The notes: a model not told the origin generated them from the letters alone. Numbered from the stretch's first letter, positions 1 through 39,257 are shown. The stretch: DNA of 64,000 nucleotides from a virus (IMGVR_UViG_3300035522_000179:32001-96000), one strand, 5' to 3'. Numbers and translations: made by a program.

Positions 1-118
1 TTTTAAAACTATCATCTGCTTCGACAGTAGAGGTATCAGTTACCTCAGTATTGTCGTAGATAAAAGTCTCGACATGAGGGAATTGCCACTTAGGGACAAT
101 CTGAATTTCTGACGCCAT
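1..118 (-). CDS. 5' end of a late gene (MASEIQIVPKWQFPHVETFIYDNT...), possibly tail sheath; runs off window
   Basis: ATG at 118 with AGGAGG RBS and AACA-N6-TA motif at 162-173; N-terminus is reminiscent of jumbo-phage sheath starts (recollection only). Confidence 0.35.
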   Translation of the reverse strand, partial: MASEIQIVPKWQFPHVETFIYDNTEVTDTSTVEADDSFK

Positions 119-206
119 AATTGACGACCTCCTTTTTACATTTTTCAATAAAATATTGATTTAATTATTTGTTTTTAAAAAGAGACGGTCTTCTTGTAAG
201 AAAAAA

Positions 207-932
207 TCACATTTTAATGGTCTCTTCCACCGGAGAAAACGTTTCTTTTCCTTTCTTTCTTGCTCGGTTAATCGACGTTGTAATCATGGTATCCATATCC
301 TCAAACGTAATGGATGAGAAGGTGGATGCATACTGACAAATCTGTCTAATCCCAACGGTTTCATAATCATTTGCAGAAATCGATAAATCACTTCCATATA
401 AGGAAGCGAAGGTCTGAGATAAGTCTTTGGGATTTCGGTAATTTAGGGAAAGTACCATTTCCTCTACTTCCGATCTTACACCAAAACCCACATTATTCGT
501 TCTTTGGTTTTTTGTCCATAGTTCCGCGGTTTTGTCATAAGGAATGGATTTTGGAATTTTTCCATCCATGACAATATCCAAGTACTGCAATGAATTTTGA
601 GAATCTTGAATGACTTTGGCATCCATGACTTTCATTCCTCGGTGATATCTTAATACCTTACAAGGTACTCCCTTCTCTTGTGGGAAATCCTTCACTTCGT
701 TTGAGGAATTGTACACATACATCTTAATCTGATAAGGATGTTTTGTAACTTCGTACTTTTTGAAATTTCCGTTTTCAAAAATTCCTGCGTAAAACAAACC
801 TAGAGTTTCGATATAGGAAGAATAGTCTACCGCATATTTTTTCTGCTCATCAAAAAAAGCAAGAGGAATATAGAATTCCATGTAGTCATCATCCAAATAG
901 ATAAACGTATGGTCTGTATGAAAATGTGACAC
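207..932 (-). CDS. Probable virion RNA polymerase beta' C-terminal subunit (SPN3US gp244/phiKZ gp176-like)
   Basis: 241 aa; C-terminal STFSSITFEDMDTMITTSI...SPVEETI resembles the beta' C-terminal region; size fits my recollection of that subunit; late motif at 971-982. Confidence 0.5.
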   Translation of the reverse strand: MSHFHTDHTFIYLDDDYMEFYIPLAFFDEQKKYAVDYSSYIETLGLFYAGIFENGNFKKYEVTKHPYQIKMYVYNSSNEVKDFPQEKGVPCKVLRYHRGMKVMDAKVIQDSQNSLQYLDIVMDGKIPKSIPYDKTAELWTKNQRTNNVGFGVRSEVEEMVLSLNYRNPKDLSQTFASLYGSDLSISANDYETVGIRQICQYASTFSSITFEDMDTMITTSINRARKKGKETFSPVEETIKM

Positions 933-1123
933 GGTTTATACCCCCTTTCTTAGATTCTCATTTTTGAGCTTAAAGGACTGTTTTTATTCAAAAAATTCAG
1001 AAATCGAAGAAATGTAATCTGTAAGAAAAATAGAAATATATTATAGTGATGACTAAGTATCAGGGGTTTGTATATAGTTATAGTTGAGGGGGACAACCCC
1101 TTTTACTTTTTTATACAAAAAAA

Positions 1124-1155
1124 AGAAGATAGATACCAATTGGTATCTATCTTCT
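1124..1155. terminator. 32-bp perfect palindrome, probable terminator
   Basis: AGAAGATAGATACCAA/TTGGTATCTATCTTCT with adjacent A tract, just downstream of minus-strand gene 1166..1642. Confidence 0.75.
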
Positions 1156-1165
1156 AAATAGAAAT

Positions 1166-1642
1166 TCAAATCATTTCAAGTAACAAATCTCTTTCTTCTT
1201 CACTGATTTCTCCATACCGACAAGATTCGTAAATCTCCAAACGAAGATCATCCGTAGATTCTTTGATTCCTTTGAGTTTTTTCTGTGCATCCAGATATCT
1301 GCCTGCTTTGTATTTTTCTTCCGGAGATTCTCCCTCATTGCCATGATACTGCATCCAGTTGCTTTTCGTGTTTTTTGCATATTGTTTGCCGGCATCACTC
1401 TTACATCCACGAGGACTGTATTTTGTGATATCAGACCCAAGTCTATTAAATGCATCAGTTTTTATAGCACTCATTTTGGTATGATAGTAATCAGCTTTTT
1501 TATGTGCAAGATTAGTATTCATACTATCAAATATGTCACGTTTTTTCCTTGCTTTGATATATTCATCCTGTAATTTATTCGCCCATTTGTTATACGCATT
1601 TGCTTCCATCACGACATCATACAATTCATCAAAATTAGCCAT
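1166..1642 (-). CDS. Tagged-family protein type A (MANFDELYDVVMEA... / ...IYESCRYGEISEEERDLLLEMI), putative internal head protein
   Basis: Paralog of 2712, 6587 and 11620 genes: conserved ends, variable middle. Confidence 0.8.
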   Translation of the reverse strand: MANFDELYDVVMEANAYNKWANKLQDEYIKARKKRDIFDSMNTNLAHKKADYYHTKMSAIKTDAFNRLGSDITKYSPRGCKSDAGKQYAKNTKSNWMQYHGNEGESPEEKYKAGRYLDAQKKLKGIKESTDDLRLEIYESCRYGEISEEERDLLLEMI

Positions 1643-1734
1643 AATTATTTCCCTCTCTTTTTACAGATTTTATTGGTCTACATTTCTGTACCTGTATAAA
1701 ACAATAATACTAAAGTATTATTGTTTTATACAGG
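1596..1734 (+). repeat. 139-bp module identical to 12092..12230 (type A gene start + leader + palindrome)
   Basis: Direct base-by-base comparison. Confidence 0.9.
1691..1734 (+). repeat. 44-bp palindrome, copy 1 (AA core)
   Basis: CCTGTATAAAACAATAATACT-AA-AGTATTATTGTTTTATACAGG, perfect 21-bp arms. Confidence 0.97.
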
Positions 1735-1792
1735 AGGAAAAAACTTTTTATAAAAATTTATCATCCCCTCCTGTTTTTAAATCCCTAGAAAA

Positions 1793-1804
1793 AACAAATT
1801 AATA
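1793..1804 (+). promoter_or_regulatory. Late promoter motif AACA-N6-TA (representative; 17 copies listed in findings)
   Basis: AACA-AATTAA-TA upstream of gene 1853; same spacing recurs upstream of structural genes. Confidence 0.75.
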
Positions 1805-1852
1805 AATGATTTCAAAAACGAAAAAAATAAGAAAGATAAAGGAGAAAAAGAA

Positions 1853-2578
1853 ATGGAACAGCCATATACACCTAGGAAATCAAAGGACGAATTGAAATCC
1901 GTAAGGTTCGTATTAAAAGATGTTAAGAAAAGAGTTCAGCAAGCAAAAAAAAACGGGGACGTAGATGAATTAGAAAAATGCAATGAAAAAATAGATGTAC
2001 TAATCGATCATATGAAAAAAGTAAAATTGAATGGGATAGGGTTTGAAGAACAGAGAAAAACGTATGCAAATATGTCTAAATTGTCGTTAGAAATTGGAGC
2101 AGTTTTTGGTTTGATGTATGTGGCACAAGGTAAATTACTAGAGAAATTTATGAAGAAATCTATCGAGAATCGTTCAATTGAATATAGTGCAGTTTATACG
2201 TGCCCTCCTAGCAAAGAACGAGATAAATTAGAGGAAGAGTGTGACAGACGATATGATAGAGATTATAAAATTGCTTCTAATTGGGAAAGCATGAAGGATT
2301 TAACTGGAATCATATCTATGGGAGGTGCTGTAGGAGCTATAGAGACCGGAATAGAAAGTACCGGTGGGGCAAGATTACAAATGAAAATGAATAAACAGAT
2401 AAAAATTCTTGAAAAAATGAGTAGAGAGTTAAAAGCAGAAATCCAGCAATTGAAATCTCAACAGCGTGGTATAAAAGAGTCTGTGAATGATGTAAGACTT
2501 GAGATTTATGAGTCTTGCTATTACGGTGATATTACAGAGGACGAGAGAGATCTGCTTCTGGATATGATTGAAGAGTAA
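1853..2578 (+). CDS. Tagged-family protein (C-terminal tag only; hydrophobic segments and coiled coil)
   Basis: Ends IKESVNDVRLEIYESCYYGDITEDERDLLLDMIEE; AAGGAG RBS. Confidence 0.8.
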   Translation: MEQPYTPRKSKDELKSVRFVLKDVKKRVQQAKKNGDVDELEKCNEKIDVLIDHMKKVKLNGIGFEEQRKTYANMSKLSLEIGAVFGLMYVAQGKLLEKFMKKSIENRSIEYSAVYTCPPSKERDKLEEECDRRYDRDYKIASNWESMKDLTGIISMGGAVGAIETGIESTGGARLQMKMNKQIKILEKMSRELKAEIQQLKSQQRGIKESVNDVRLEIYESCYYGDITEDERDLLLDMIEE

Positions 2579-2628
2579 TATAAAACTAGATAGAATCATT
2601 ATTTGATTCTATCTAGTTTTTTCTTTTC

Positions 2629-2675
2629 CTGTAAAAATAACAATCTATCTAATAGATAGATTGTTATTTTTACAG
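2629..2675. repeat. Variant 47-bp palindrome followed by the TTTTATACAGG half-site
   Basis: CTGTAAAAATAACAATCTATCTA-A-TAGATAGATTGTTATTTTTACAG, perfect 23-bp arms, upstream of gene 2712. Confidence 0.85.
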
Positions 2676-2711
2676 TTTTATACAGGTAGAGTATTATAAG
2701 GAGGATTATAA

Positions 2712-3248
2712 ATGAGTAGATTTGATGAATTGTATGATGTGGTGATGGAAGCAAATGCGTATAACAAATTGGCGAATAATTTAAAAGATGAGTATGATAG
2801 AGAACGCAAGAAACGTGATAGTTATCGTCGTCGTTTAAGAAATTTGTCACCTGATAATCTCCTAATTAACAAAGCTGATTATAATACTAACAAAGTTGAT
2901 TATACTAACAAAGCTAATTATCATGATACAAAAATGCATGTTGCAGATACGGCGTACTATAATCAGATCGGTGGTAATATCCAAGATTACTGTCCTCACG
3001 GGAATAGATTTGGTACTTGCGAAGATTATAGAATTGCAAGAAAGAAGAAGAAAGAGTGGATGAAAAACCATGGAAATGTTGGAAAATCTCCGGAAGAGCG
3101 ATACAAAGAAGGCAGATATTTAGACCAACAGAAAGAACTCAAAGGAATCAAAGAATCTGTGGATGATATCCGTTTGGAGATTTATGAATCCTGTCGGTAT
3201 GGAGATATCTCGGAAGAAGAAAGAGATTTGTTATTGGAAATGATTTAA
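2712..3248 (+). CDS. Tagged-family protein type A (MSRFDELYDVVMEA...)
   Basis: Shared N- and C-terminal blocks; GAGGA RBS. Confidence 0.8.
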   Translation: MSRFDELYDVVMEANAYNKLANNLKDEYDRERKKRDSYRRRLRNLSPDNLLINKADYNTNKVDYTNKANYHDTKMHVADTAYYNQIGGNIQDYCPHGNRFGTCEDYRIARKKKKEWMKNHGNVGKSPEERYKEGRYLDQQKELKGIKESVDDIRLEIYESCRYGDISEEERDLLLEMI

Positions 3249-3290
3249 AGAATCTAGAAGAGATATATTAATATATCTCTTCTAGATTCT
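3249..3290. terminator. 42-bp perfect palindrome between convergent genes
   Basis: AGAATCTAGAAGAGATATATT/AATATATCTCTTCTAGATTCT. Confidence 0.75.
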
Positions 3291-3296
3291 ATTTTT

Positions 3297-4637
3297 TCAG
3301 ATCATCATTATTAGCTCATCTCTATCTTGCTCTGTTATCAATCCGTCATTAAATGATTCCATAATCATTAATACTGTATCAATATCTGAATCATCTCCAG
3401 ATTCTAATTCCAATGTTCTATCACCAGCATAAAAGTTCGGAAATAATGTTGTAATAATATCAGTTCTTCCTTGGAACATGGTATCAATTGCGGTTCTTGT
3501 TGCTGCAGTAATTACAAGATACTCCCCATTCACATTACCATCCAAATAATTCTGGTAAATCGTTTGAAGATCATTTATGCTTTCTTGAATCTCTTTTTTT
3601 ACTTTAGGATTCACGCCCGTTTTTGCGAGTTCTCTTTTCAGAAGTTCGATTGCGATAGTCGTTCTATTGGAAGAACTACCATGCATAGGACTAGTAAACT
3701 CATCTAAAATACTTGCTTCCGCCAATCGAATATCCGTTAATACTCGTATAATTGGGAAAGATGAAACTTTCTTAGTTCTTTTAAATTGCATTGATTGATC
3801 CGATTTATATAAAGCGGAGATAAGTTCTGGTCCATAACCATACGCAATAGCAAAAGAATCCGCAAATTCTTCTGATTTTTTCCCAGGTAACGTAAACAAT
3901 TGACTCACGGGGGATAATAAAACTTCAAGAGGTGTAAAAGGAATATTTATATAGGTGGATAATTTACGGATTTGAAGACCAATCCAATCGCCGGATTTAA
4001 GTAAAAATCCGTAAATAGATTTTATGATTGGAATCTTTTCAAAAATAAAACCTATAATTTTTTCACAAATCATATTAATCCTTCCAGGAATGAACTTTAA
4101 AGAATTCACATTATGAAATAAAGTACTTATCGGATCTATAAAATTTCTTTTTCTTAATTCATTCACAATACGAATGAACTTGATTAACCATGAAACCCCT
4201 TTATAAAAACTAAAATCAAAATTATGACCAATTTCATGCAAGATTAGGGCAGTGTACTCTCTCGGGGTAATGTCAATAGAGCGAACAAGTGCAGTTGATA
4301 AATTGATCAATGCAACGGTAGAGTGCGTTTTGTCATAATACCCTTTTTTTGAATCTATCTCAAACATACATTTTCCGGATACAACAGAATCTATAGAAGA
4401 ATATGTGGCTATTTGAGGAGAGAGTTCGGAATCTTTATACCACATGCAATAGGTTTCTTTAAACCCAAATTGCTTTGTGATTAAATTCTGTAATATTTTA
4501 TTCTCTGTGGAATTAGTTACATCATAATGGGGATCAATTTTAATTTTATCTATTATAATTCCAATTTGTTTTTCAATATTTGGAATCAATCCAGCTTTTC
4601 CGTAATATGCTTCCTGATATACATCAAACTCTTTCAT
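3297..4637 (-). CDS. Zincin-like (HEIGH) putative metallopeptidase with a degenerate family C-terminal tag
   Basis: EYTALILHEIGH, EEFADSFA, C-terminal MESFNDGLITEQDRDELIMMI; late motif at 4678-4689. Confidence 0.65.
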   Translation of the reverse strand: MKEFDVYQEAYYGKAGLIPNIEKQIGIIIDKIKIDPHYDVTNSTENKILQNLITKQFGFKETYCMWYKDSELSPQIATYSSIDSVVSGKCMFEIDSKKGYYDKTHSTVALINLSTALVRSIDITPREYTALILHEIGHNFDFSFYKGVSWLIKFIRIVNELRKRNFIDPISTLFHNVNSLKFIPGRINMICEKIIGFIFEKIPIIKSIYGFLLKSGDWIGLQIRKLSTYINIPFTPLEVLLSPVSQLFTLPGKKSEEFADSFAIAYGYGPELISALYKSDQSMQFKRTKKVSSFPIIRVLTDIRLAEASILDEFTSPMHGSSSNRTTIAIELLKRELAKTGVNPKVKKEIQESINDLQTIYQNYLDGNVNGEYLVITAATRTAIDTMFQGRTDIITTLFPNFYAGDRTLELESGDDSDIDTVLMIMESFNDGLITEQDRDELIMMI

Positions 4638-4806
4638 TTTATATAATTTTTCCTTTCTATTCAGTTACGGTTCATATTAGTATTTTGTTTTGTACATTTT
4701 CAAACTAGCAATTTTAATATAAACATATTTTTAAAATAAAAAATTTGTTTTTATACAGGAATACTTTTTATAGTAAAATCTTTTTATAAAAAGGAGAAAA
4801 ATAACT

Positions 4807-5547
4807 ATGGCTAATTTTGATGAGTTGTATGATATGATTAATGGTGCAACTTATGAATCCATGTTTGAGATTGACGATGATATGGATACAGATGATATTG
4901 CATATATCGAGAGTTGCAGGGATCTTACTGAGTACCTCGAAAAAACACGTATCACAGACAATGATGGAGAAGGTCCTTCTACTTTTAGAGAAAAACTCTC
5001 TAGATTTGCATTTAATAAAAAAGAAGATCTCAGAGAGGGCAAAGCTCGCATACAAGGTGCATTCGACAACGCAAGGATTAAGAAAATTCAGAAAGATATA
5101 GAGAAGAGAGAAAACTCTGATGGTGACGAGACTGTTCCTCAAAAGAAAATTTTTGCTCATTTGAGTAAAGGTGAAATCCTTGCAGGTGTTGGACTCTTAG
5201 CAGCCGCTGGTGTTGCTTCTCTTACCGTGATCAGACATAAGACAAAGAACAAAGAGATTGTTAAGACTGTAGATGATTTGAAGAAAGAGATTGAAGAGAT
5301 CAAGAAGTCTGCTAAAGCAGGTGAAATTTCTGTTAGAGAAGCTTGGAGTGAAACAAGAAGAATTAACAAAGAGATCAAAGCTCTCGAGAAAGCTGCTGAG
5401 GCTGAAGAGAAAGCTAATGCTGCTGAGGAAGCGAAGAAGGCTATGAAGGAGTCTGCTGATGATGTAAGACTTGAGATTTACGAGTCTTGCTATTACGGTG
5501 AGATTTCCGAGGACGAGAGAGATCTGCTTCTGGATCTTATGGACTAA
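4807..5547 (+). CDS. Tagged-family protein (MANFDELYD leader, TM-like helix, coiled coil, C-terminal tag)
   Basis: ILAGVGLLAAAGVASLTVI hydrophobic stretch; ends LEIYESCYYGEISEDERDLLLDLMD; degenerate palindrome/late motif at 4717-4759. Confidence 0.8.
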   Translation: MANFDELYDMINGATYESMFEIDDDMDTDDIAYIESCRDLTEYLEKTRITDNDGEGPSTFREKLSRFAFNKKEDLREGKARIQGAFDNARIKKIQKDIEKRENSDGDETVPQKKIFAHLSKGEILAGVGLLAAAGVASLTVIRHKTKNKEIVKTVDDLKKEIEEIKKSAKAGEISVREAWSETRRINKEIKALEKAAEAEEKANAAEEAKKAMKESADDVRLEIYESCYYGEISEDERDLLLDLMD

Positions 5548-5604
5548 TAAAACAATAAATGACCATGAACTTATCGATTATGATAAGTTCATGGTCATAT
5601 TTTT
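5527..5604 (+). repeat. 78-bp module (LLDLMD-stop + bidirectional terminator 5559..5598) identical to 11536..11613
   Basis: Direct comparison; 17-bp stem ATGACCATGAACTTATC/GATAAGTTCATGGTCAT. Confidence 0.9.
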
Positions 5605-5612
5605 TTATTATG

Positions 5613-6464
5613 TTAAATCATCTCCAAAAGTAAATCTCTTTCTTCTTCCGAGATTTCTCCATACCGACAGGACTCATAAATCTCAAGTTTGATATCATTG
5701 TCAGAAGTAGATTCTTTCATGATTTTAGAAAATACTGCGTTTCTTGCAGATACTTCTCTCATGGTTTCCTCATATCTTTTATCTATTTCAGCAAGACTGG
5801 TCTCGATCTTTGCTTGAACAGCAGGGGAATCAACTTTCACTTTTTTAACTTCTCTATTGAGTTGTATAAGTAATTTTTTCAAATCCTTATAAATCCGATG
5901 CAATTCTGTTACGAGATCATTGTATTTGGTAACTTCTGCATCTATTAATGAAAGTTTTTTTGTAGCATTCACAAATTCCTTTGAATTGTAATTCTTATTC
6001 ATTACTTCAGTTGTATTTGATTTTGCTGAAGAGATTCCTCCAACATCACTGGCAACTTTAGTAATAGATAATCCTCCGTTGGAATTTTCAGTCAATGTTA
6101 CCGTAGGAGCTCCTGATGTTTCAGCGATTATAGCATAAGCCAATGTCATAGTTTCCAGGCGACTGGCATGTTCATTTAATTCCTTCGTAACTTTATTAAT
6201 TTCTTTTTCTTTTTTTAGAATCTCATCCCGAATTGATTTCAATTGCGGATTTTTGTTGTATCCATTCTCTTTTCTCTTATTATCTGTGATGACAAGTCCA
6301 GCAACAAGCCCAACAACAGCAGAGACCAAAGCTCCGATACCTACCATTGGAGCATATTTTTTAATTTTTTGCTTTGTGGCAGGTGACATTTTTTCTACGT
6401 AATAATTATCTTCATTAACCGATTCTACTGTGCAATATAACTCTGTAAATTTATCCATATTCAT
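5613..6464 (-). CDS. Tagged-family protein type B (MNMDKFTELY... leader, TM-like helix, long coiled coil, tag)
   Basis: Paralog of 10729..11556; AAGGAG RBS before ATG 6464. Confidence 0.8.
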   Translation of the reverse strand: MNMDKFTELYCTVESVNEDNYYVEKMSPATKQKIKKYAPMVGIGALVSAVVGLVAGLVITDNKRKENGYNKNPQLKSIRDEILKKEKEINKVTKELNEHASRLETMTLAYAIIAETSGAPTVTLTENSNGGLSITKVASDVGGISSAKSNTTEVMNKNYNSKEFVNATKKLSLIDAEVTKYNDLVTELHRIYKDLKKLLIQLNREVKKVKVDSPAVQAKIETSLAEIDKRYEETMREVSARNAVFSKIMKESTSDNDIKLEIYESCRYGEISEEERDLLLEMI

Positions 6465-6538
6465 TTTCTCCTTTTTAGAATAAGAATGAGTCAACCTGTA
6501 TAAAACAATAATACTTTAGTATTATTGTTTTATACAGG
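6385..6538 (-). repeat. 154-bp module, inverted copy of 10655..10808 (1 mismatch)
   Basis: Palindrome + leader + codons through YYVEKMS. Confidence 0.9.
6495..6538 (-). repeat. 44-bp palindrome, copy 2 (TT core on + strand, opposite orientation)
   Basis: Identical arms; lies between divergent type B and type A genes. Confidence 0.97.
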
Positions 6539-6586
6539 TACAGAAAGCAGATTAGTACAAATATAAAAAAAGAGAGGGAAATAATT

Positions 6587-7096
6587 ATGGCTAATTTTGA
6601 TGAATTATATGATGTTGTAATGGAAGCAAATGCGTATAACAAATGGGCGAATAAATTGAAAAATGAGTATGATGATCATATGAAATCATATCATGATAAT
6701 CAAGACAAAATAATAAATAATAATAAATCCATTTTTGACCCCAGATCTAAAGTATGGGGGTATGCGGCAGATGCTAAAAAACATTTCAATGCCGCATATG
6801 ATATCGAGGATCAATATCGTTCTCAGACTGGTGAAAAAGAAATGAATTATTCACCACACGGAGACGAAAGAAGTGTTTATCAATCTTCTGTTCCGAAGCA
6901 AACTTGGATGAAAAAACATGGAAATGTTGGAAAATCTCCGGAAGAGAGATACAAACCAAATCGTTATTTAAACATCCAACAAAAAATAAATGGGACGAAG
7001 GAATCTGCAAATGATATTCGTTTGGAGATCTATGAGTCTTGTCGGTATGGAGAAATCAGTGAAGAGGAAAGAGATTTACTTTTGGAAATGATTTAA
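6587..7096 (+). CDS. Tagged-family protein type A
   Basis: MANFDELYDVVMEANAYNKWANKL...IYESCRYGEISEEERDLLLEMI. Confidence 0.8.
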   Translation: MANFDELYDVVMEANAYNKWANKLKNEYDDHMKSYHDNQDKIINNNKSIFDPRSKVWGYAADAKKHFNAAYDIEDQYRSQTGEKEMNYSPHGDERSVYQSSVPKQTWMKKHGNVGKSPEERYKPNRYLNIQQKINGTKESANDIRLEIYESCRYGEISEEERDLLLEMI

Positions 7097-7104
7097 AGTA
7101 ATAA

Positions 7105-7143
7105 AAATCTGGTAAAGGAATTTTAAATTCCTTTACCAGATTT
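7105..7143. terminator. Bidirectional hairpin (19-bp arms)
   Basis: AAATCTGGTAAAGGAATTT-T-AAATTCCTTTACCAGATTT between convergent genes. Confidence 0.75.
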
Positions 7144-7147
7144 GTTT

Positions 7148-9610
7148 TTATAATAATTCAGACATCTCTCGTTCAATTACTTCTAACACATCGATATCTT
7201 CAAATGTCGATTCCACTACGGGTCTCTCTTCCACTTTGGGATTTAAAATAGAATCTACAAAGTCATTAATTGCCGATTCCATTTTTTGATCTTCATCTGT
7301 TTCTTTGCTTTCTTTCAGATGTTCTACCCAGTCTTTCAGCGCGCCCATATAGCGTTTCTTCCATTTTTCAAATGCTTCATTCGGCGTTCCATCTTTTTCG
7401 TTGTAAGTATATGCTCTTACATAAATTCCAGTTGTATCGGAGTTTTTATTCAAATACCATCCTTCTGGAATCGTATCAAACTTATACTTCTTATCAAAGG
7501 TCAGTCGTGCAGTAGTGTAAATCTTTCCATGGTATACACCATCTCGATAACCATCTTCTTTAATTCTAGATCTATTATGTCCAGAGCAAGAATACTTCAC
7601 TGTATATCCAAGCTTATTCAAAAGATTTACGATGGGTTTAATATCCTCATCGATCTCATCTTCATCACTTTCTGTGACAACCAGTTCCTTATCAAAGTCA
7701 ATCTGATTCAAAACCTTCTCACAGATTTTTTCTGTTTCATTCTGAGAAACCAAATCGGTTGCAAATCGGTTCACTCTTTCTGTAAACTTGATATCATCCA
7801 GTTTGGTGTCAAACACAGATTCAAATACGTTATAGCAAGAATCAAACAAATTCGTACTAGGAGATTCATTGATCAGATCAACCATGTAATCAAACACATT
7901 ATCTGTATCAACACAAGCCTCTTCACAAACAGAATTGATCATAAACACCAATTCTTCTTTTCGGTTTTCAACGGATTCAGAGATGGTGTTGTAATTGCAA
8001 TCCTTTGCTTTCTTCATAAGAGAAAGTTTTTTATCACTCACCTCTTCAAAGGAATTTTCATAGTACGGATGATTCTCATTAAGAGTTCCATTATACGTGT
8101 CATTTACCCACTCGTTAATAATGATACTCTCCTTTCTAAAGTTCTTAACAGATTCCAAGACATCTTTTTCAGATTTCCTTTCTTCTCTTTCTTTCTTTTT
8201 CGCAGCTTCCTCTTTCTTTGCTCTCTTAACCTCTTTATAGTTTTCGATTGCATGATCAAAGGCGTTTTCTGCTTTATCTCGGTTTGCATCGTAGTTCGGA
8301 TCATCTTCCGGATCTTTTTCCAGAATCTTCTTTAACTTTCTTGCAGCGTCGCGAACATCGGATGCATCTGATTTCAATCCTAATTCTACCTTGTCTTCAA
8401 TTGCAGATTCTTTTACTGCACCTTGAATTTCATAAGAAATATCAACTCCAGTATTTACAGAACTAAATTCGCAGGTAATCAACATCTCTTTTATGCGTTT
8501 TATATAATGAGTGATCTGTCCATTTTCTTTTACTGGACTAAATCCACAAGAAGTGATGGTTTTCCGAATCATATTAGGATCTGCTTTATCGTTTGAAAAA
8601 GAAAATCCATATTTATTCTTTTTCGTGTTCAGACAAGATTTAAAACTAGTTGCATCATCTCCAGGATTAGAAAGTTTTAAATCTTTCTTCAACTTATCAA
8701 ACAGCTTTCTTGCTTCGGTATCAAAGGTGGGATTGTTTTTAAATACTGCAGCAGCTTCCGTAGTAACAAAGAGATTATTTGAACGGAACCATTGACCAGT
8801 ATATCCCAAAACGGATTCCAAAGAGTTAAACCTAGGAATCATTCTATCCTCTTCTCTTACCACATCCTCTGTTAAATCGTCTTCATTGGAATTAATTTCT
8901 GCATCTGTACTAGAAACCATATCCTTCACAGATACTCCGGAAAGATCTTTCGATAACACATTTCCAGTGAGAGGAATTACAGGAGCCATTGCACCAACAG
9001 ATTCATCGTCATTAAACAAAGACTGTGTAAATCCAGTGAGTACTGATGCATCCTCTAAAGTGATTGCGCCAGTAAGTGCTTTGCTACAGATTACTTTTTC
9101 GTATAAGTAATCTCTACTTACCCTTTCATCCGGAAAAGCACGGTAAAGATTTCTTGTAAGATCATCAAATCCATCCTCTCCAGCAGACTCGATGTATTTT
9201 GCAAGTTCATCTCTTTTCTCATCTGCTACAAGACTTGCCATCTTTCCTACCGTAGAATCGTTTTCCCAGGTAGATTCCAAAGTATAATCTTCATAAAAAG
9301 AATCTCCTTCCCTTCTTTTGATGATCTCTTTGAAAGGAAGAACTGCTTCTCCAAAGAATAAATTATTTACAGTTGGAATCTCATCTCCAAGCTCGGAAAC
9401 ATCCAATCCTCTTTCTACCAATGCTTCTTCATCTGCTCTTACAATATCAATCATTGCAAGGGCTTCGGATTCCGTAAGAAATCCAAAATTATAGTTGTCA
9501 TTAATTGCATCTAAAATTTTAATATCTTCTGCGACTTTCGCTTCCATGTAACGAGAAGTAAAAGGAATATCAAAAGTTGCAGGAATAGGTCGCATGTCAA
9601 AATTACTCAT
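7148..9610 (-). CDS. Large acidic putative inner-head protein with many x-x-E|S sites and a Tyw3-like (SCSGH) domain
   Basis: MSNFD start; repeated TLES/VKES/VLES/VTES/KMES; IDEDIKPIVNLLNKLGYTVKYSCSGH; late motif at 9636-9647. Confidence 0.6.
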   Translation of the reverse strand: MSNFDMRPIPATFDIPFTSRYMEAKVAEDIKILDAINDNYNFGFLTESEALAMIDIVRADEEALVERGLDVSELGDEIPTVNNLFFGEAVLPFKEIIKRREGDSFYEDYTLESTWENDSTVGKMASLVADEKRDELAKYIESAGEDGFDDLTRNLYRAFPDERVSRDYLYEKVICSKALTGAITLEDASVLTGFTQSLFNDDESVGAMAPVIPLTGNVLSKDLSGVSVKDMVSSTDAEINSNEDDLTEDVVREEDRMIPRFNSLESVLGYTGQWFRSNNLFVTTEAAAVFKNNPTFDTEARKLFDKLKKDLKLSNPGDDATSFKSCLNTKKNKYGFSFSNDKADPNMIRKTITSCGFSPVKENGQITHYIKRIKEMLITCEFSSVNTGVDISYEIQGAVKESAIEDKVELGLKSDASDVRDAARKLKKILEKDPEDDPNYDANRDKAENAFDHAIENYKEVKRAKKEEAAKKKEREERKSEKDVLESVKNFRKESIIINEWVNDTYNGTLNENHPYYENSFEEVSDKKLSLMKKAKDCNYNTISESVENRKEELVFMINSVCEEACVDTDNVFDYMVDLINESPSTNLFDSCYNVFESVFDTKLDDIKFTERVNRFATDLVSQNETEKICEKVLNQIDFDKELVVTESDEDEIDEDIKPIVNLLNKLGYTVKYSCSGHNRSRIKEDGYRDGVYHGKIYTTARLTFDKKYKFDTIPEGWYLNKNSDTTGIYVRAYTYNEKDGTPNEAFEKWKKRYMGALKDWVEHLKESKETDEDQKMESAINDFVDSILNPKVEERPVVESTFEDIDVLEVIEREMSELL

Positions 9611-9677
9611 TTTTTCCACCAACTTTCCATAGAATTATCAGATTGTTTTTGCATCTAAGGCAAACTAACATTAAAAT

Positions 9678-9792
9678 AATGAAAATACCAAATAGACGTA
9701 AAATGCTTGTTTAAGTTTCTGATTTGTTTTAATCTCCCATTGTTTTTTGAATAAGGAAGACACTCTGTATGTAGTGTCTTCCTTATTCTTTT
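9678..9792 (+). ncRNA. Candidate ~110-nt late small RNA
   Basis: AACA-N6-TA at 9667-9678, 16-bp terminator stem at 9749-9788, no credible ORF between. Confidence 0.35.
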
Positions 9793-9839
9793 CGTTAAAT
9801 TTACACTGGGAAACAATTTTTTAAAGAGGTGAAGATAAT

Positions 9840-10199
9840 ATGATTACAAATACATCAAATATCTTTGAATTTAAAACAAAAGAAACAGGATATATTGCAA
9901 AAGCTTGTGCTGCGCCAGAAGCAGGAGAGAAAAGAGAAATTTATATTCCAAGACTTATGCCGAATATAAAATCAGGAACCCCAAAAACATCCACTCTATC
10001 TTCTAGAGGAAATTTGGTGTTTAAAAACGCACCCGCTTGTAAAGTTCAAGCAGCAACCGTTTTGAAATCCCAAAACTATATCATGGTTCCTTATGAGAAA
10101 AATAAAACATGGGATGATCCAGAAATTAAGAGTATGACCCAAATTACTTGCAATTGCAAAAATAACACCATTGCTGGAATCACATTCTCAAATGATTAG
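9840..10199 (+). CDS. Hypothetical virion/baseplate-associated protein
   Basis: GAGGTG RBS, late motif at 9812-9823, adjacent to gp53-like gene. Confidence 0.55.
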   Translation: MITNTSNIFEFKTKETGYIAKACAAPEAGEKREIYIPRLMPNIKSGTPKTSTLSSRGNLVFKNAPACKVQAATVLKSQNYIMVPYEKNKTWDDPEIKSMTQITCNCKNNTIAGITFSND

Positions 10200-10210
10200 A
10201 GGAGTAAACT

Positions 10211-10630
10211 ATGAGTACACAAAATAGTAGTACACTGGAAACCCAGGTATATAATGAATTGAAAAATGATTTGATTTATAGGGATTTAAATTCTACGCTT
10301 GAAATATTAGATCGAGAGAGCAATGAAAAGATTGTAATACCTTATATTTCTACGGTATCAAAATATATGGATTTTTTAAAATCAATTATATTAGAAGTGG
10401 AATTGACAGATATTCAATATGAGAGATATCGGCAAAATCCTCATGCGGTATCGGAAGCATTGTATGGAACAACGCAGTATTGGGATATCTTACTGAAACT
10501 AAACAACTGTGTTAGTAGATTTGAGTTCAACAAAAAGAAAATCAAATACTACGACCCATTAGAATTAGTGACGTATTTGAATGAGTTAGTGATAAAAGAA
10601 GACGAACTTGCAAATACAAGTTCGTACTAA
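10211..10630 (+). CDS. Baseplate wedge protein, T4 gp53/LysM-like
   Basis: YRQNPHAVSEALYGTTQYWDILLKLNN signature. Confidence 0.7.
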   Translation: MSTQNSSTLETQVYNELKNDLIYRDLNSTLEILDRESNEKIVIPYISTVSKYMDFLKSIILEVELTDIQYERYRQNPHAVSEALYGTTQYWDILLKLNNCVSRFEFNKKKIKYYDPLELVTYLNELVIKEDELANTSSY

Positions 10631-10654
10631 TTTTTATAATTTACCCCCCCCCCC

Positions 10655-10698
10655 CCTGTATAAAACAATAATACTAAAGTATTATTGTTTTATACAGG
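10655..10698 (+). repeat. 44-bp palindrome, copy 3 (AA core)
   Basis: Identical to 1691..1734. Confidence 0.97.
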
Positions 10699-10728
10699 TT
10701 GACTCATTCTTATTCTAAAAAGGAGAAA

Positions 10729-11556
10729 ATGAATATGGATAAATTTACAGAGTTATATTGCGCAGTAGAATCGGTTAATGAAGATAATTATTACGTAGAA
10801 AAAATGTCTGCAGACGCTAGTTCGAAACTTAAAAAAGCTGCAGCAATAGCAGGTGTTGGAGTACTTGTTTCTGGTATTGTTGGACTTGTTGCTACAGATA
10901 GTAAGAGGACAGAATATGGATATAATAAAAATCCTGAGATGAAAGTTCTTCGAGATCAAATTCTCAAGAGAGAAAAAGAACTCAAAAAAGCAGTAACTAA
11001 CCTTGAACAACAAACAAAAAGGGTGGAAGCAATTGCACAAAGTTACAATACAATTGCAAACCAAATTGGAAAAGTTACTATTACATTGGAGGAAAACTCC
11101 AATGCAGGGTTAAGCATTAAAGAAGAGAATAAAATTGGATTTATTAGGGGAAAGAGTTCCGAAAAGGAAAATCCGAATTATTCTACGAAAATCTATATGG
11201 ATGCTTCTAAAAAAAGAGAAATCTTAAATATGGAAGTTGAAAAATACAATGTGCTAGTTAAAGAAGTAAACGATATTTATAAAGATTTACAGAAGTTGCT
11301 CAAAAAATTCAATAGCGCTGTGAAGATGTTGAAAGTGTCACCTAAAGTACAGGCAAAACTTACTGAAGAATTGAGTAAGATTGAAGAAAGATATAGTGAC
11401 GCTTTAACCGATATTAATGAAAGAAATGCCCAGTTTTCTAAATTTGTGAGAGAATCGGAAGAAGATACAAATGCAAAACTTTTTGTCCATGAGTCTTATC
11501 GATGTGGTGATATTACAGAAGAGGAAAGGGACATTCTTCTGGATCTTATGGACTAA
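10729..11556 (+). CDS. Tagged-family protein type B
   Basis: Paralog of 5613..6464; ends HESYRCGDITEEERDILLDLMD. Confidence 0.8.
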   Translation: MNMDKFTELYCAVESVNEDNYYVEKMSADASSKLKKAAAIAGVGVLVSGIVGLVATDSKRTEYGYNKNPEMKVLRDQILKREKELKKAVTNLEQQTKRVEAIAQSYNTIANQIGKVTITLEENSNAGLSIKEENKIGFIRGKSSEKENPNYSTKIYMDASKKREILNMEVEKYNVLVKEVNDIYKDLQKLLKKFNSAVKMLKVSPKVQAKLTEELSKIEERYSDALTDINERNAQFSKFVRESEEDTNAKLFVHESYRCGDITEEERDILLDLMD

Positions 11557-11619
11557 TAAAACAATAAATGACCATGAACTTATCGATTATGATAAGTTCA
11601 TGGTCATATTTTTATTACA

Positions 11620-12138
11620 TTAAATCATTTCCAAGAGAATATCTCTTTCTTCTTCACTGATTTCTCCATACCTACAGGATTCATAAATCTCCAAACGAAG
11701 ATCATCCACAGATTCTTTGATTCCTTTGAGTTCTTTCTGTTGGTCTAAATATCTGCCTGCTTTGTATCGTTCTTCCGGAGATTTTCCAACATCACCATGC
11801 TTTTTCATCCAATTTTTTTTAACACATTTAAAAGCAAATCTATCTCCGTAAGGTTCATCGTCATTTTTAAATCCATGTCTACTGTAATCTTTCAAACTAC
11901 TCATTCCGTCAACACTGTCATTATATCTACCTACTGCATGGGATCCTTTTTCAAAATGATCTTCAGCTTTCTTTCGTAATTCTTTTTTATATTCAGGGTC
12001 ATCTGCGTTATTAGCTAGTCTATTAAGTAATATATGCTTTTTTACATCCTTTTTATATTCATCCTGTAATTTATTTGCATATTTATTATATGCATTTGCT
12101 TCCATCACGACATCATACAATTCATCAAAATTAGCCAT
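11620..12138 (-). CDS. Tagged-family protein type A
   Basis: 5' DNA identical to gene 1166; a 58-bp 3' block is identical to gene 2712. Confidence 0.8.
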   Translation of the reverse strand: MANFDELYDVVMEANAYNKYANKLQDEYKKDVKKHILLNRLANNADDPEYKKELRKKAEDHFEKGSHAVGRYNDSVDGMSSLKDYSRHGFKNDDEPYGDRFAFKCVKKNWMKKHGDVGKSPEERYKAGRYLDQQKELKGIKESVDDLRLEIYESCRYGEISEEERDILLEMI

Positions 12139-12186
12139 AATTATTTCCCTCTCTTTTTACAGATTTTATTGGTCTACATTTCTGTA

Positions 12187-12230
12187 CCTGTATAAAACAA
12201 TAATACTAAAGTATTATTGTTTTATACAGG
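12187..12230 (+). repeat. 44-bp palindrome, copy 4 (AA core)
   Basis: Identical to 1691..1734. Confidence 0.97.
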
Positions 12231-12319
12231 GGGGGGGTAAATTATAAAAAACTTCAAAAAAAATAAGCTAAGAGATGTATGTTGCATCTCTTAGCTTATT
12301 TTCTATTCCTTGCTTTGTA

Positions 12320-12454
12320 CTACTTGTTCTCTTCATACCATTCCCGGTATTCATCCTCGGTTGAGAATAACTGATACGCATCGAACCCTTTTTCATCTTT
12401 CCCAATAAAGCCTTCACAACCATTTGATACAAGATAAAATTTGTACTCTAACAT
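12320..12454 (-). CDS. 44-aa early protein (MLEYKFYLVSNGCEGF...STEDEYREWYEENK), not in the ORF track
   Basis: AAGGAG RBS, early motif at 12594-12611, hairpin terminator near 12262-12302. Confidence 0.65.
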   Translation of the reverse strand: MLEYKFYLVSNGCEGFIGKDEKGFDAYQLFSTEDEYREWYEENK

Positions 12455-12707
12455 ATTTTTCTCCTTTCCTTTGGTGGCTTAAAACAGTTTATTAATTTCA
12501 TGTTTTGAGACATTTGAAAATAGTGATAAATAGTGCAAAGAACTTTTATAATTGAGTATGTATACATTTATACATACTCAATTATCTGTGTATTTCATGC
12601 AAATAATATATGAATCAATTTTCCTTGTTTTCAATTTATTTTTATATACTAAAATACACTTCATTAATCACAAGAAACTGATAAAATGAAGAAAGGATGG
12701 TATTAAC

Positions 12708-13079
12708 ATGAGTTTAATATCAGCAGAACGATTACATAGATGGAAATGTGTCTATTGTGGATCAAAGGATAAAAACATTGTGAATATACTTGCTCCGCTT
12801 GCGGAAGGAGAAGAAAATCTTGTAGGATCGACTGGTGAAGTAAATGGAAATAAGTTGGGTTCTGCTATGAAGATTGTGACCTGTTCTCAGTGCGGACATA
12901 CGGATATTTTTTCACATTCCGCTCTTATGGCAGGGCATATTCTTAGGAATGAAAAAATTCCAACATTTACGGAATCGGAAAACTATGTCAAAAAATTCCA
13001 TGATAAAAATCACAACGATCCTCTTAGAAATCCACACAATGAACACCCATCAACGACAACACCTAAAAATACCATTTAA
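12708..13079 (+). CDS. Zinc-ribbon protein
   Basis: CVYC...CSQC pairs. Confidence 0.6.
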   Translation: MSLISAERLHRWKCVYCGSKDKNIVNILAPLAEGEENLVGSTGEVNGNKLGSAMKIVTCSQCGHTDIFSHSALMAGHILRNEKIPTFTESENYVKKFHDKNHNDPLRNPHNEHPSTTTPKNTI

Positions 13080-17749: not shown

Positions 17750-17767
17750 AAGAAAGGAAATGGTTTT

Positions 17768-18586
17768 ATGGCAAATGGTGCTGTTTACCAAACCTTAAGC
17801 GAATTTTTTTATAATCCCTTTGGAGTAGATGCTTCCAAAGAAATTCAGAAGTTATCTCCTAAGTATGAAAAGAGTAAAGCGAGGATTGAACTCCATGGAT
17901 ATGCTATCCTGGATGATTCGTATTATTTTCATATTTGGATCCCTTCCGATTCACAACCGGGGAAGAAATACGATGTGGTAATTCAGTTTCTTCCCCCGAA
18001 GGGGATTGAAATTGAATCGACCCTGGATCATTATGTGATTCAGTTCTTTTCCAATTCACCGAGTTTTATTTATAAATATGCAGTTCTTTACAAAGAAAAA
18101 GGATATATGATTGACGCACTACAGTCAAAATTAGATCCTGAGTATGCAGGTAAAGCTCCGGTGGTTTCCAATGCGCAATTAGCGTTAAGCATTGATAAAT
18201 CGATTTATTTTGCCGTAAGATTTCTTTACGAGAATCGACTTACGTATTTATCAAAACCTTCTCTTCGATATGTCACGAAGTTTGACTTTAGGTTCTTGGT
18301 TTCATCCATTGATGATAACAAAACTTCCTTAGGACGAACCGCGTATGATATTGAGAAGGAAGCAATCAAAGAAGGAAAAAGCGATAGAGATAAAATCACA
18401 AAGAAAGTAAAAAAGGCGTTAGGAATCAAAACGCCAGAAGATGACAACAGAGGAATTGGTAAAAAATCCAAAAAAACCGCTGTAACATCTACCATTACTG
18501 GTGGACGAAAAAGTCCAATTCAATCAAAGAAACAACCCATCGGTAAGAATAAAAAGATTACCGCTGGGAGAAGGACTGGAAAATAG
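17768..18586 (+). CDS. Hypothetical protein with basic C-terminal tail
   Basis: 272-aa ORF directly downstream of the chaperonin gene. Confidence 0.65.
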   Translation: MANGAVYQTLSEFFYNPFGVDASKEIQKLSPKYEKSKARIELHGYAILDDSYYFHIWIPSDSQPGKKYDVVIQFLPPKGIEIESTLDHYVIQFFSNSPSFIYKYAVLYKEKGYMIDALQSKLDPEYAGKAPVVSNAQLALSIDKSIYFAVRFLYENRLTYLSKPSLRYVTKFDFRFLVSSIDDNKTSLGRTAYDIEKEAIKEGKSDRDKITKKVKKALGIKTPEDDNRGIGKKSKKTAVTSTITGGRKSPIQSKKQPIGKNKKITAGRRTGK

Positions 18587-25178: not shown

Positions 25179-25353
25179 ATAAGAGAGGATTCAACCAAAT
25201 CGGTTGAATCCTCTTTTTTATTTTTTAGGGTTATTTGAAGGTTTTATATTCCTTCGATAACCTTTTGATGCAGGAAACACTTCTGAAAAATCTACTTGAA
25301 CTGCTCCCTTTCTTTTCGCAACATCACTCATCGTTTCTTTTTTGTTATCTTTA

Positions 25354-39132: not shown

Positions 39133-39257
39133 ACTTTTTACGTCCTTTCTTTTCTTTAACATATTGTCGTTTTCCGAAATAAAAAAGAGAATACCATGAT
39201 TTTTAGGCAAAAAACAATTTGTTAATACTTCACAGAAGGGAAGTGAAAAGAAATATT

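Follow-up and report, generated by a model that had tools for sequence, protein, structure and literature searches.

A portable two-helix tag on late proteins of an uncultured gut phage, most likely an address label for the virus head

In the genome of an uncultured gut phage of approximately 250 kb (249.6 kb), nine genes in mixed orientation occupy a locus of ~11 kb (positions 1166–12138 of the window, i.e. the whole 64,000-nucleotide stretch that was analysed) and encode proteins carrying the same short tag. On the sequence evidence this tag most likely serves as an address by which cargo enters the virus head, a reading that stems from the recurrence of tag-like hairpins in a scaffold-like protein encoded beside the head protease gene. 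The fuller picture is of a fast-evolving late array with a portable hairpin address, in which co-assembly with the head would be followed by possible clipping and by retention of the basic bodies, and the genes would be shuffled at constant modules; we consider its chances to be about even.

The phage genome contains several split RNA polymerase beta/beta' genes, and its terminase is closest to those of Bacillus phages BpSp and Goe21 and next to those of phiKZ-like Erwinia and Pseudomonas phages. The motif AACA-N6-T(A/G), which is the late-promoter motif of AR9 (PMC5312081), was found upstream of 50 of 234 genes in the sense direction versus 16 in antisense. Together the polymerase genes, the terminase neighbours and the enrichment of this motif argue that the phage is a member of the phiKZ-related giant phages (phiKZ/AR9-like).

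The tag and the genes that carry it

The earlier note had described nine genes ending in a common acidic tag of ~30 amino acids, and all nine open reading frames were recovered with their tags. The cores, which it took to be unrelated or variable, are hypervariable but not all unrelated, as they fall into five families (A, four genes; B, two; C, D and E, one each, E being an M48-like peptidase). The array is laid out as follows, in window positions:

1166..1642, minus strand: type A gene, 158 aa; leader, basic helical core and C-terminal tag
1691..1734: perfect 44-bp palindrome with 21-bp arms and AA centre, between the divergent genes 1166 (minus) and 1853 (plus)
1853..2578, plus strand: type C gene, 241 aa; leaderless, with hydrophobic segments and the tag at the C-terminus
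2712..3248, plus strand: type A gene, 178 aa
3249..3290: hairpin predicted to act as a two-way terminator, where genes 2712 and 3297 converge
3297..4637, minus strand: type E gene, 446 aa; variant leader and degenerate tag around an M48-like metallopeptidase core
4807..5547, plus strand: type D gene, 246 aa; has a leader, a single membrane-like helix, a coiled coil and the tag
5527..5604: 78-bp module of gene end and predicted two-way terminator (5559–5598), identical to 11536–11613
5613..6464, minus strand: type B gene, 283 aa from MNMDKF; leader and tag enclose a membrane-like helix and a coiled coil
6495..6538: 44-bp palindrome with TT centre, between divergent B (minus) and A (plus) genes
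6587..7096, plus strand: type A gene, 169 aa
7148..9622, minus strand: untagged late gene within the array, 820–824 aa
10655..10698: 44-bp palindrome, preceded by a C run and TTTTTATAATTTA; left end of a 1.6-kb B+A unit
10729..11556, plus strand: type B gene, 275 aa; its tag is the most diverged in the array
11620..12138, minus strand: type A gene, 172 aa
12187..12230: 44-bp palindrome with a G run and TAAATTATAAAAA after it; closes the 1.6-kb B+A unit on the right

The untagged gene at 7148..9622 has a weak tag-like motif close to its N-terminus, and its homologues in related genomes are located elsewhere. The type C gene has a paralogue at genome positions 125239–125970.

A hidden Markov model (HMM) built from the tag recognized eight of the nine array genes with E values of 1e-20 to 1e-25; the tag of 3297–4637 is degenerate but clear (E 1.8e-12 with a broader, non-circular HMM). 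The core motifs of the tag are L-x-I-Y-E-S and G-x-I-S/T-x-E-E-R-D-x-L-L, and it is modelled as an acidic hairpin of two helices, about 30 residues long. At the sequence level the tag is a real module kept by purifying selection: genes 1166 and 5613 are identical at 23/23 tag residues despite nine synonymous codon changes, and 1166 and 4807 at 19 of 23 with 13 such changes.

Copies of the tag also occur outside this locus; the genome-wide HMM search gave four further clear ones at 125–134.6 kb and two degenerate ones elsewhere, making at least 13 clear copies in the genome and 14 matches when the scaffold-like protein, P0047, is counted. An exhaustive search of 1.84 billion proteins found 299 protein clusters (50% identity) at E <= 1e-3. 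Among the top 150 and earlier matches, 98 carried the tag at the C-terminus, 24 at both ends, 21 internally and 12 at the N-terminus; one type A relative has a tag-like piece at its N-terminus and none at its C-terminus. Payloads in relatives include HAD hydrolase, acetyltransferase and phosphoesterase domains. Neither the tag nor P0047 occurs in any cultured relative, and the tag is present in no GenBank phage. Tag HMM searches detected it in none of the RNA-polymerase-subunit ORFs of the genome; a virion RNA polymerase would need packaging, and the tag therefore cannot be the sole route into the head.

This range of architectures (mostly C-terminal, some N-terminal or doubled, and many small proteins that consist of two tags only) resembles that of small oligomerisation domains, and the hairpin might instead be a general module for self-association or docking, used in the way proposed for SHOCT domains; it would then gather late proteins in complexes outside the virion (active, for example, in lysis control, exclusion or help with assembly at the cell membrane) and play no part in head loading. 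A strongly hydrophobic, membrane-like helix followed by a coiled coil in about 40% of tagged proteins would fit a late membrane function. SHOCT (PF09851) and the plectin repeat (PF00681) are likewise short helix-turn-helix units with a G-x-I-S/T-x-E-E turn, SHOCT being mostly C-terminal on diverse proteins, and the tag profile cross-matches eukaryotic plakins. SHOCT, however, matched none of eight tag pieces at E <= 10, and the single 14.5-bit match in a six-frame scan of the genome (223.5 kb) lies at no tag; nor did any tag reach the plectin repeat model. Kinship of the tag with plakins was rejected, the matches being sums of many weak repeats in eukaryotic proteins. A docking module would further leave unexplained why tag-like repeats occur in the protein encoded next to the head protease, why the bodies are basic but their ends acidic, and why the type E core is homologous to an annotated structural protein (all described below), and we regard it as unlikely.

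Indirect links to the virus head

P0047 is encoded on the minus strand (genome 204267–205574) directly downstream of the head-maturation protease gene, whose product matches phrog_3014 (E 1e-16; PHROG 3014/207); the genome has no match to Pfam Peptidase_S77 (PF03420, T4 gp21) at E <= 1. An HMM of the tag built without P0047 scored this protein at 24.7 bits (E 2.3e-6), a value reached by none of 2000 shuffles (maximum 12.2). Its three tag-like hairpins are among the best-conserved parts of the protein and, like the tag, are modelled as helix-turn-helix units. P0047 is acidic and partly disordered, and we call it scaffold-like only on the grounds of its gene position, composition and predicted shape (mean pLDDT 58). 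The gene order protease, P0047, p213 is retained in a 279-kb relative, G001.

With regard to timing, the late motif is found upstream of the genes of types C (AACA-N6-TA, 60 nt upstream), D and E (52 nt upstream), of the 824-aa gene, of the protease operon and of the operon that includes tagged genes F, G and A; in relatives, too, it stands ahead of most tagged genes. The exact motif is absent from the palindrome-bearing type A and B genes, and the presumed early motif was found upstream of no tagged gene.

The type E core contains HEIGH and EEFAD motifs that are both conserved in phiR1-37 g204, annotated as a phage structural protein, and the two proteins have HEIGHNF and ExFxDxFAxxxGYGPEL in common; judged by these shared motifs the core is homologous to g204. 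Its atlas neighbours are viral clusters, 11–43% of them with PF01435 (score 0.96), and it has no Pfam match at E <= 0.01.

Most array genes do begin, as had been noted, with a leader of the form M-x-x-F-(D/T)-E-L-Y...E-(A/S), seen in the four A genes, both B genes and D, with a variant in E and none in the type C gene 1853. A regular-expression test found this leader in 47 of 98 proteins whose tag is C-terminal only. At the leader end of 25 metagenomic relatives the residue two before Glu is V (14), I (4) or L (3), and that after Glu is S, A or G in 22; the type A junction E|ANAYNK is invariant, longer leaders included, and the body of the relative with an N-terminal tag-like piece also begins there. 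The junction before the tag reads I/T/M/V-(K/R)-E-S in the phage genome, and in relatives the corresponding first residue is V in nine, T in eight, H in three and A in only two. Cleavage in phiKZ and SPN3US follows an A/S/G-x-E rule, with which the I/T/M/V-x-E seen ahead of the putative cuts disagrees. The conserved Glu-Ser could be part of the fold as an alternative to a cleavage site. Leaders carry charges of -1 to -5 and tags of -3 to -9, while 12 of 13 cores have a pI of 8.6–9.7 (genome median 5.4; 20% of genome proteins above 8.5); metagenomic relatives follow the same trend of basic core and acidic ends.

If the tag is an address label, its hairpin would allow tagged proteins to co-assemble with the core or scaffold protein, or to attach where that protein does on the inside of the capsid wall, during prohead formation. 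The head protease may then cut the acidic end pieces off at Glu-Ser/Ala junctions between tag and body, and the mostly basic bodies would remain alongside the DNA inside the head, in the manner of T4 internal proteins or SPN3US ejection proteins. For the tagged proteins we infer that they are loaded into the head, cleaved, and retained or injected; any part as effectors or against host defence would likewise be inferred.

The same hairpin, common to tagged proteins and a scaffold-position protein, could also mark the tagged proteins as paralogous aids of the prohead-core or scaffold type, which would enter by way of it and be degraded and expelled at maturation, with no role as cargo or effectors. 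Structure models of the tagged proteins, largely helical with disordered linkers, and the numerous potential Glu-Ser/Ala sites agree with this, and the T4 core proteins gp22, gp67 and gp68 act in such a manner (PMC7411985). But scaffolds are acidic and these bodies are basic; some payloads are enzymes, namely the M48-like peptidase here and the hydrolase, acetyltransferase and phosphoesterase domains of relatives; and relatives differ widely in copy number and content, as essential components of assembly do not usually do. We find this explanation quite unlikely.

Returning to the address label, its broadest form is that a clade of uncultured phiKZ/AR9-like gut jumbo phages has copied a portable, position-independent two-helix domain from its own scaffold and uses it as a general address for the capsid interior, so that any fused protein (an enzyme, a membrane-active or a DNA-binding protein) would be loaded, trimmed and delivered with the DNA. 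We advance this tentatively, as something short of an even prospect; were it true, the 11-kb array would be a recombination hot spot at which new cargo is tried out under host-defence pressure.

Palindromes, repeats and probable exchange within the array

The four 44-bp palindromes (at 1691, 6495, 10655 and 12187) proved identical once strand is considered, as reported earlier, and three have AA as their 2-bp centre, the fourth TT. The copy at 1691..1734 would fold as a DNA hairpin of -18 kcal/mol (z -10). The palindrome arm is the most over-represented 12- to 14-mer in the genome, and the motif GTTTTATACAGG, which also occurs as a single half-site at 2675–2686 upstream of gene 2712, is almost confined to the array locus.

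Exact repeats of 139, 107, 78, 58 and 52 bp were found in the array; the upper figure of 154 bp reported before was not found. The 139-bp repeat (12092–12230 and 1596–1734) comprises the first 47 nt, 5' UTR and palindrome of genes 11620 and 1166; the 107-bp repeat is inverted and pairs the region of the palindrome at 6495..6538 with 10655–10761. The genes are modular, as had been proposed, with hypervariable cores surrounded by a conserved 5' module and a tag-plus-terminator module. Tag DNA is more alike between adjacent unrelated genes than between paralogues, and this grouping by neighbourhood and not by core family indicates recombination.

The palindromes might be sites of a dedicated site-specific recombination system, integron- or invertase-like, by which tagged cassettes are captured, excised and inverted; the unit of 1.6 kb at 10631–12250 would then be a circle that has integrated. 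This would suit four identical copies with a directional 2-bp centre and nearly confined to the locus, as well as the B+A unit, which has direct palindrome copies at its ends and inverted C- and G-run flanks outside them, and the A-palindrome-B junction that recurs, inverted, at 6495. The genome, however, has no match to tyrosine recombinase PF00589 and only two sub-threshold matches to serine recombinase PF00239 (genome 17.0–18.2 kb, about 15 kb from the array); the centre orientation follows gene orientation, as expected of a palindrome within a duplicated upstream module; the exact identity (139 and 107 bp) runs into UTR and coding sequence, which fits homologous exchange, cf. T4 PeSL; and tagged genes of related genomes are present without the 44-bp palindrome. 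We hold such a system to be improbable.

Under the preferred account of a shuffled array of addressed proteins, the locus would grow and reshuffle by duplication and by homologous recombination between a constant 5' module (palindrome, UTR and leader) and a constant 3' module (tag and terminator). The content of the locus is wholly different among four relatives, and the region shows complete differences in G001, L032 and L033. Signs of recombination are the exact repeats within diverged paralogues and the grouping of tag DNA. The earlier note's reading is supported in part, as to modularity, signs of recombination, a variable locus and, by indirect evidence, a link of the tag to the head, but not as to the palindromes as exchange points: no recombinase gene was found near them, and relatives have tagged genes that lack such a palindrome.

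Comparison with known systems

PeSL cassettes of promoter and stem-loop mediate modular shuffling in T4-like phages (PMC2839356, PMC4122927). The array resembles them in its repeated intergenic stem-loops near start codons of variable genes, its hyperplastic region and the G/C runs by the stems; by analogy, a two-gene unit flanked by copies in direct orientation might be released as a small circle. Unlike PeSL, the array has no sigma-70 promoter (sigma-70-like sites are not enriched in the phage; 43 found versus 51 expected), its palindrome is one exact 44-bp sequence in one locus, and the phage has its own RNA polymerases.

The head of SPN3US contains > 50 proteins with one paralogue family of 17 to 21 members, and the C-terminal propeptide of its protease likely targets the protease to the prohead (PMC5105663, PMC10052503, PMC7411985). 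Our phage shares with phiKZ and SPN3US the same broad group, split multisubunit RNA polymerases and a related terminase; those phages have many head proteins in big paralogue families and a protease that cuts after Glu. Unlike the array proteins, whose putative sites have I/T/M/V at the corresponding position, the substrates known from those phages carry N-terminal propeptides and are cut at A/S/G-x-E. The tagged proteins showed no homology to the phiKZ/SPN3US head paralogue families. We know of no common portable tag described in phiKZ-related head proteins.

Mullaney and Black in 1996 and Repoila et al. in 1994 are said to have described the T4 capsid targeting sequence (CTS) on internal proteins IPI–III and Alt, and polymorphic ip loci in T-even phages (see also PMC7411985). 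As in the CTS system, a short common end-piece is found on unrelated, mostly basic proteins; the array leader, M-x-x-F-D-E-L with a hydrophobic-x-E end before A or S, resembles in form the T4 leader, which ends at the protease site L/I-x-E; and the locus is variable between relatives, with proposed removal by the head protease after Glu. In contrast to the CTS, the array tag is a predicted folded two-helix domain of ~30 residues, usually at the C-terminus although either end is possible, and common to a scaffold-position protein; this phage belongs to the phiKZ/AR9-like group, and its tagged proteins lack sequence homology to T4 internal proteins; Pfam S77 finds no gp21-type protease in its genome.

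The scaffolding protein of P22 has a C-terminal helix-turn-helix domain that binds coat protein, and encapsulins load cargo by means of short peptides. To our knowledge no phage has been described that naturally equips a variety of cargo proteins with a module of this kind. The P22 coat-binding domain is basic whereas the array tag is strongly acidic (-6 to -9); by analogy with both systems, a small terminal module that the scaffold carries as well would be enough to draw a fused protein into an HK97-fold shell.

Organization of the array and build of its proteins

All nine open reading frames named in the earlier note were present, each ending in the common tag, an acidic two-helix piece of about 30 residues. 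A tag HMM recovered eight of them at E values of 1e-20 to 1e-25; the tag of gene 3297, rightly described as degenerate, was nevertheless clear by a broader HMM (E 1.8e-12). That most of the genes begin with a shared leader, the N-terminal M-x-x-F-(D/T)-E-L-Y piece, also held, with seven carrying it, type E having a variant form and type C none. The cores had been thought unrelated or highly variable; variable they are, but not all are unrelated, as the nine form five families (window positions):

Genes 1166, 2712, 6587 and 11620: core family A
Genes 5613 and 10729: core family B
Gene 1853: core family C
Gene 4807: core family D
Gene 3297: core family E
7148-9622, minus strand: untagged late gene of 820-824 aa inside the array, with a weak tag-like motif near its N-terminal end and no family match

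Homologues of this untagged gene (47% identity) are located elsewhere in the complete 279-kb relative phage G001 and in a further related sequence, G003, so the gene has moved relative to the flanks of the locus.

The four 44-bp palindromes are identical save for a 2-bp centre that depends on strand. No other 12- to 14-mer of the genome is repeated as often as their arm, and the motif is nearly restricted to the array locus. Exact repeats of 139, 107, 78, 58 and 52 bp span either a palindrome with the UTR and first codons, or a gene end with its terminator. Terminator-like hairpins were enriched (24 observed versus 5.1 expected), every cassette being closed by them; no enrichment of sigma-70-like promoters was found, and an Rfam search of window 1-13000 gave no match near threshold. 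Upstream regions of genes are enriched in the AR9 late-promoter motif (PMC5312081), and many tagged genes of this phage and of its relatives have it ahead of them; in its exact form it is missing from the A and B genes, those with a palindrome, and the presumed early motif precedes no tagged gene. The motif TGATATAT(C/T)A occurs at window 29429, 31316, 32007 and 33233 and at about 20 further genome sites, often as inverted pairs and with shared flanks (AAAGTCAATATT before, TTGTGAAT after); no copy lies in the tagged loci. It may serve as an early (virion polymerase) promoter or have another regulatory role.

The leader of type A passes into an invariant E|ANAYNK junction, which is unchanged in relatives whose leader is extended by 46 residues; one type A relative has a tag-like piece at its N-terminus and no C-terminal tag. 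In the AlphaFold model (pLDDT 74), a long hairpin of helices forms the core and is joined by a low-confidence linker (residues 120-141) to two short helices that make up the tag. Invariant L, E, G, I, R and D residues occur in the tag. DNA identity among the type A paralogues is 77-91% over the first 90 nt and the tag, and 29-53% over the core. Tag residues have remained unchanged through many synonymous changes, and the protein sequence itself is therefore under selection. Leaders and tags are strongly acidic whereas 12 of 13 bodies, and six of seven core families, are basic in a proteome that is acidic (median pI 5.4); many payloads contain a membrane-like helix. On visual inspection the leader looks similar to helix 1 of N-terminal tags, or to their helix 2 with the junction, and it was considered as half a tag; this failed a shuffle test, in which a profile of 28 N-terminal tags scored leaders (median -2.5) no higher than shuffles.

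Type E is a true homologue of g204 of phiR1-37, a protein that carries a structural annotation and whose gene lies in a structural gene cluster. Type E itself resembles an M48-type metallopeptidase. A second protein matching its PHROG (2767, M48-like) is encoded at window 35229-36455 (minus strand); it matches with its N-terminal part only and has no tag.

Probable exchange between constant modules and turnover of the locus

Tag DNA clusters by neighbourhood, not by core family: the tag of C1853 is 91% identical to that of D4807 versus 65% to that of its own paralogue, and the tag of B5613 likewise shares 91% with an A tag versus 65% with that of B10729. Exact repeats occur within otherwise diverged genes. 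The comparison across genomes proposed earlier was made between conserved flanks, formed on the left by the tail sheath and a neighbouring virion gene and on the right by the homologue of gene 12708; content between them differed in all relatives examined. In G001 the interval contains 19 kb of other genes and one N-tagged gene, the related sequence L033 has two tagged genes together with unrelated genes, and L032 has no tagged gene.

Within the array, a 1.6-kb unit of one B and one A gene (window 10631-12250) is bounded by direct palindromes, outside which lie inverted flanks with C and G runs:

10631-10654: TTTTTATAATTTA followed by a C run
12231-12250: a G run followed by TAAATTATAAAAA

The TTTTTATAATTTA/TAAATTATAAAAA flanks are perfectly inverted, with homopolymers of 13 and 9 when palindrome bases are counted. 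The unit resembles the PeSL mini-circles of T4-like phages (PMC2839356, PMC4122927).

The DNA mosaic and the exact repeats are signs of recombination, which was first suggested to act at the repeats; a role of the palindromes as dedicated recombinase sites is improbable, and recombinase models gave no usable match in the genome. The palindrome was also absent from the relatives in which it was sought. With neither a recombinase nor palindromes in relatives, the simplest reading is that the array would be reshuffled by homologous exchange between constant modules. The sole recombinase-like signal of the genome comes from two adjacent ORFs at 17004-18156 (minus strand) with weak, sub-threshold matches to serine recombinases (Resolvase). 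Six matches to the palindrome arm in IMG/VR all fell in one unrelated coding sequence without palindrome or tags, and were set aside.

Tags beyond the array and a scaffold-like protein

A tag HMM search of the whole genome, another check called for earlier, found four further clear copies outside the array. These belong to a second tagged group, outside the window, at genome 125239-134571 (stretch L007), and weaker tags were found at three other places:

Genome 125239 (L007:5239-5970): type C
Genome 132605 (L007:12605-13306): type F
Genome 133321 (L007:13321-13950): type G
Genome 134029 (L007:14029-14571): type A
Genome 162966-164117, plus strand: degenerate tag at ORF end (E 0.003, non-circular HMM), leader-like start and hydrophobic segments
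Genome 24676-25209, minus strand: degenerate tag at ORF end (E 0.04, non-circular HMM)
Genome 125937-126149 (L007:5937-6149): decayed tag remnant, with a tag-like start and then divergence, just past tagged gene 125239-125970

The remnant is a sign of cassette turnover. The F, G and A genes form one operon behind a 325-aa gene with a late-promoter motif, adjoining the DNA polymerase block and a 1633-aa RNA polymerase gene.

In protein databases, a word-based search gave about 30 clusters with the tag and an exhaustive profile search 299. Most measure 100-300 aa and carry the tag at the extreme C-terminus, about half of these having the leader as well; in a minority the tag is N-terminal, internal or at both ends. 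Payload domains include HAD hydrolase, acetyltransferase and phosphoesterase. Of the giant matches (2,000-5,600 aa), considered as phage polyproteins, the three scanned proved to be eukaryotic plakins and were discounted; kinship of the tag with SHOCT and plectin was ruled out at the level of sequence. Seven proteins of G001 match the tag, with eight matches in all, dispersed over its genome and with no array.

Directly after the head-maturation protease gene (PHROG 3014; L019:9591-10529, minus strand) lies the gene for P0047 (L019:8267-9574, minus strand; genome 204267-205574), a mostly helical, partly disordered protein of 435 aa with a long acidic low-complexity stretch; occupying the customary position of the scaffold gene, it presumably encodes the scaffold. 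P0047 scored 24.7 bits (E 2.3e-6) against a tag HMM built without it, versus a maximum of 12.2 bits in 2000 shuffles. It has three tag-like hairpins, two detected by the HMM and the C-terminal one by eye, each modelled as helix, G-turn, helix; these repeats are among the best-conserved segments of an otherwise fast-evolving family, which is found together with tags in G001, G002 and the MAG G005. Two genes beyond lies p213:

L019:6644-7285, minus strand: 213-aa protein, tag-like helix at its N-terminal start, conserved in G001

The order protease, P0047, p213 is preserved in G001 (identity 72%, 32% and 29% respectively). A complex prediction of the tag with P0047 residues 160-262, run without controls, scored 0.16 versus a mark of 0.32, a result taken as neutral on binding. 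No major capsid gene was recognised among ten large late ORFs, and the T4 gp21 Pfam model had no usable match in the genome.

The phage, proposed capsid cargo and known systems

The window covers bases 32001-96000 of a single 249,613-bp contig rated complete in IMG/VR, and the phage is one of the phiKZ/AR9-like giant phages. It carries several split multisubunit RNA polymerase genes; its terminase is closest to those of Bacillus jumbo phages BpSp and Goe21 (31-34% identity), with phiKZ-like phages next. A chaperonin, a DHFR-like protein and an ABC-transporter-like protein are also encoded, as is one very long ORF:

Window 39219-50792, plus strand: 3857-aa ORF with a late-promoter motif and no informative family match

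Among GenBank phages, none matched the locus in DNA and none had a protein matching type A, the tag, the 824-aa protein or P0047. Related contigs fall in MAG bins of Lachnospiraceae and Lactobacillus, a hint that the host is a gut Firmicute. Two related-phage contigs (L033 and C66 of G005), with tagged genes, a DNA polymerase block and a scaffold-like protein, lie in a Lachnospiraceae MAG bin, a weak hint that is either a host clue or mis-binning.

Giant phages pack and eject dozens of proteins with their DNA; to our knowledge the sole well-defined address for phage-packed proteins is the 10-residue N-terminal peptide of T4. That the tagged proteins are capsid cargo is the best-supported explanation of our observations, unproven and in our judgement evenly poised; effector and anti-defence roles are speculation. 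If true, a tag usable at either end and common to the scaffold would give the phiKZ/AR9-like group a loading rule that is concrete and testable. The packaged proteome would be predictable from sequence alone, 299 protein clusters already matching; proteins such as peptidases, acetyltransferases and hydrolases would stand out as candidate early-acting effectors, and there would be a natural handle to load foreign proteins into large capsids.

Heads of SPN3US contain over 50 proteins, among them a family of 17 to 21 paralogues, and the C-terminal propeptide of its protease is thought to direct the protease to the prohead (PMC5105663, PMC10052503, PMC7411985). Putative cut sites of the tagged proteins do not match A/S/G-x-E, the cleavage rule of phiKZ and SPN3US (PMC5105663, PMC10052503, PMC7411985); Glu-Ser at the tag junction may have a structural role instead of being a cut site. 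The array represents a second phage lineage with apparent T4-like reshuffling of putative cargo genes via repeated regulatory modules. The tag system is of a known kind, that of the T4 CTS and of giant-phage head processing; new here is a folded, mainly C-terminal tag, common to a scaffold-like protein, in the phiKZ/AR9-like lineage.
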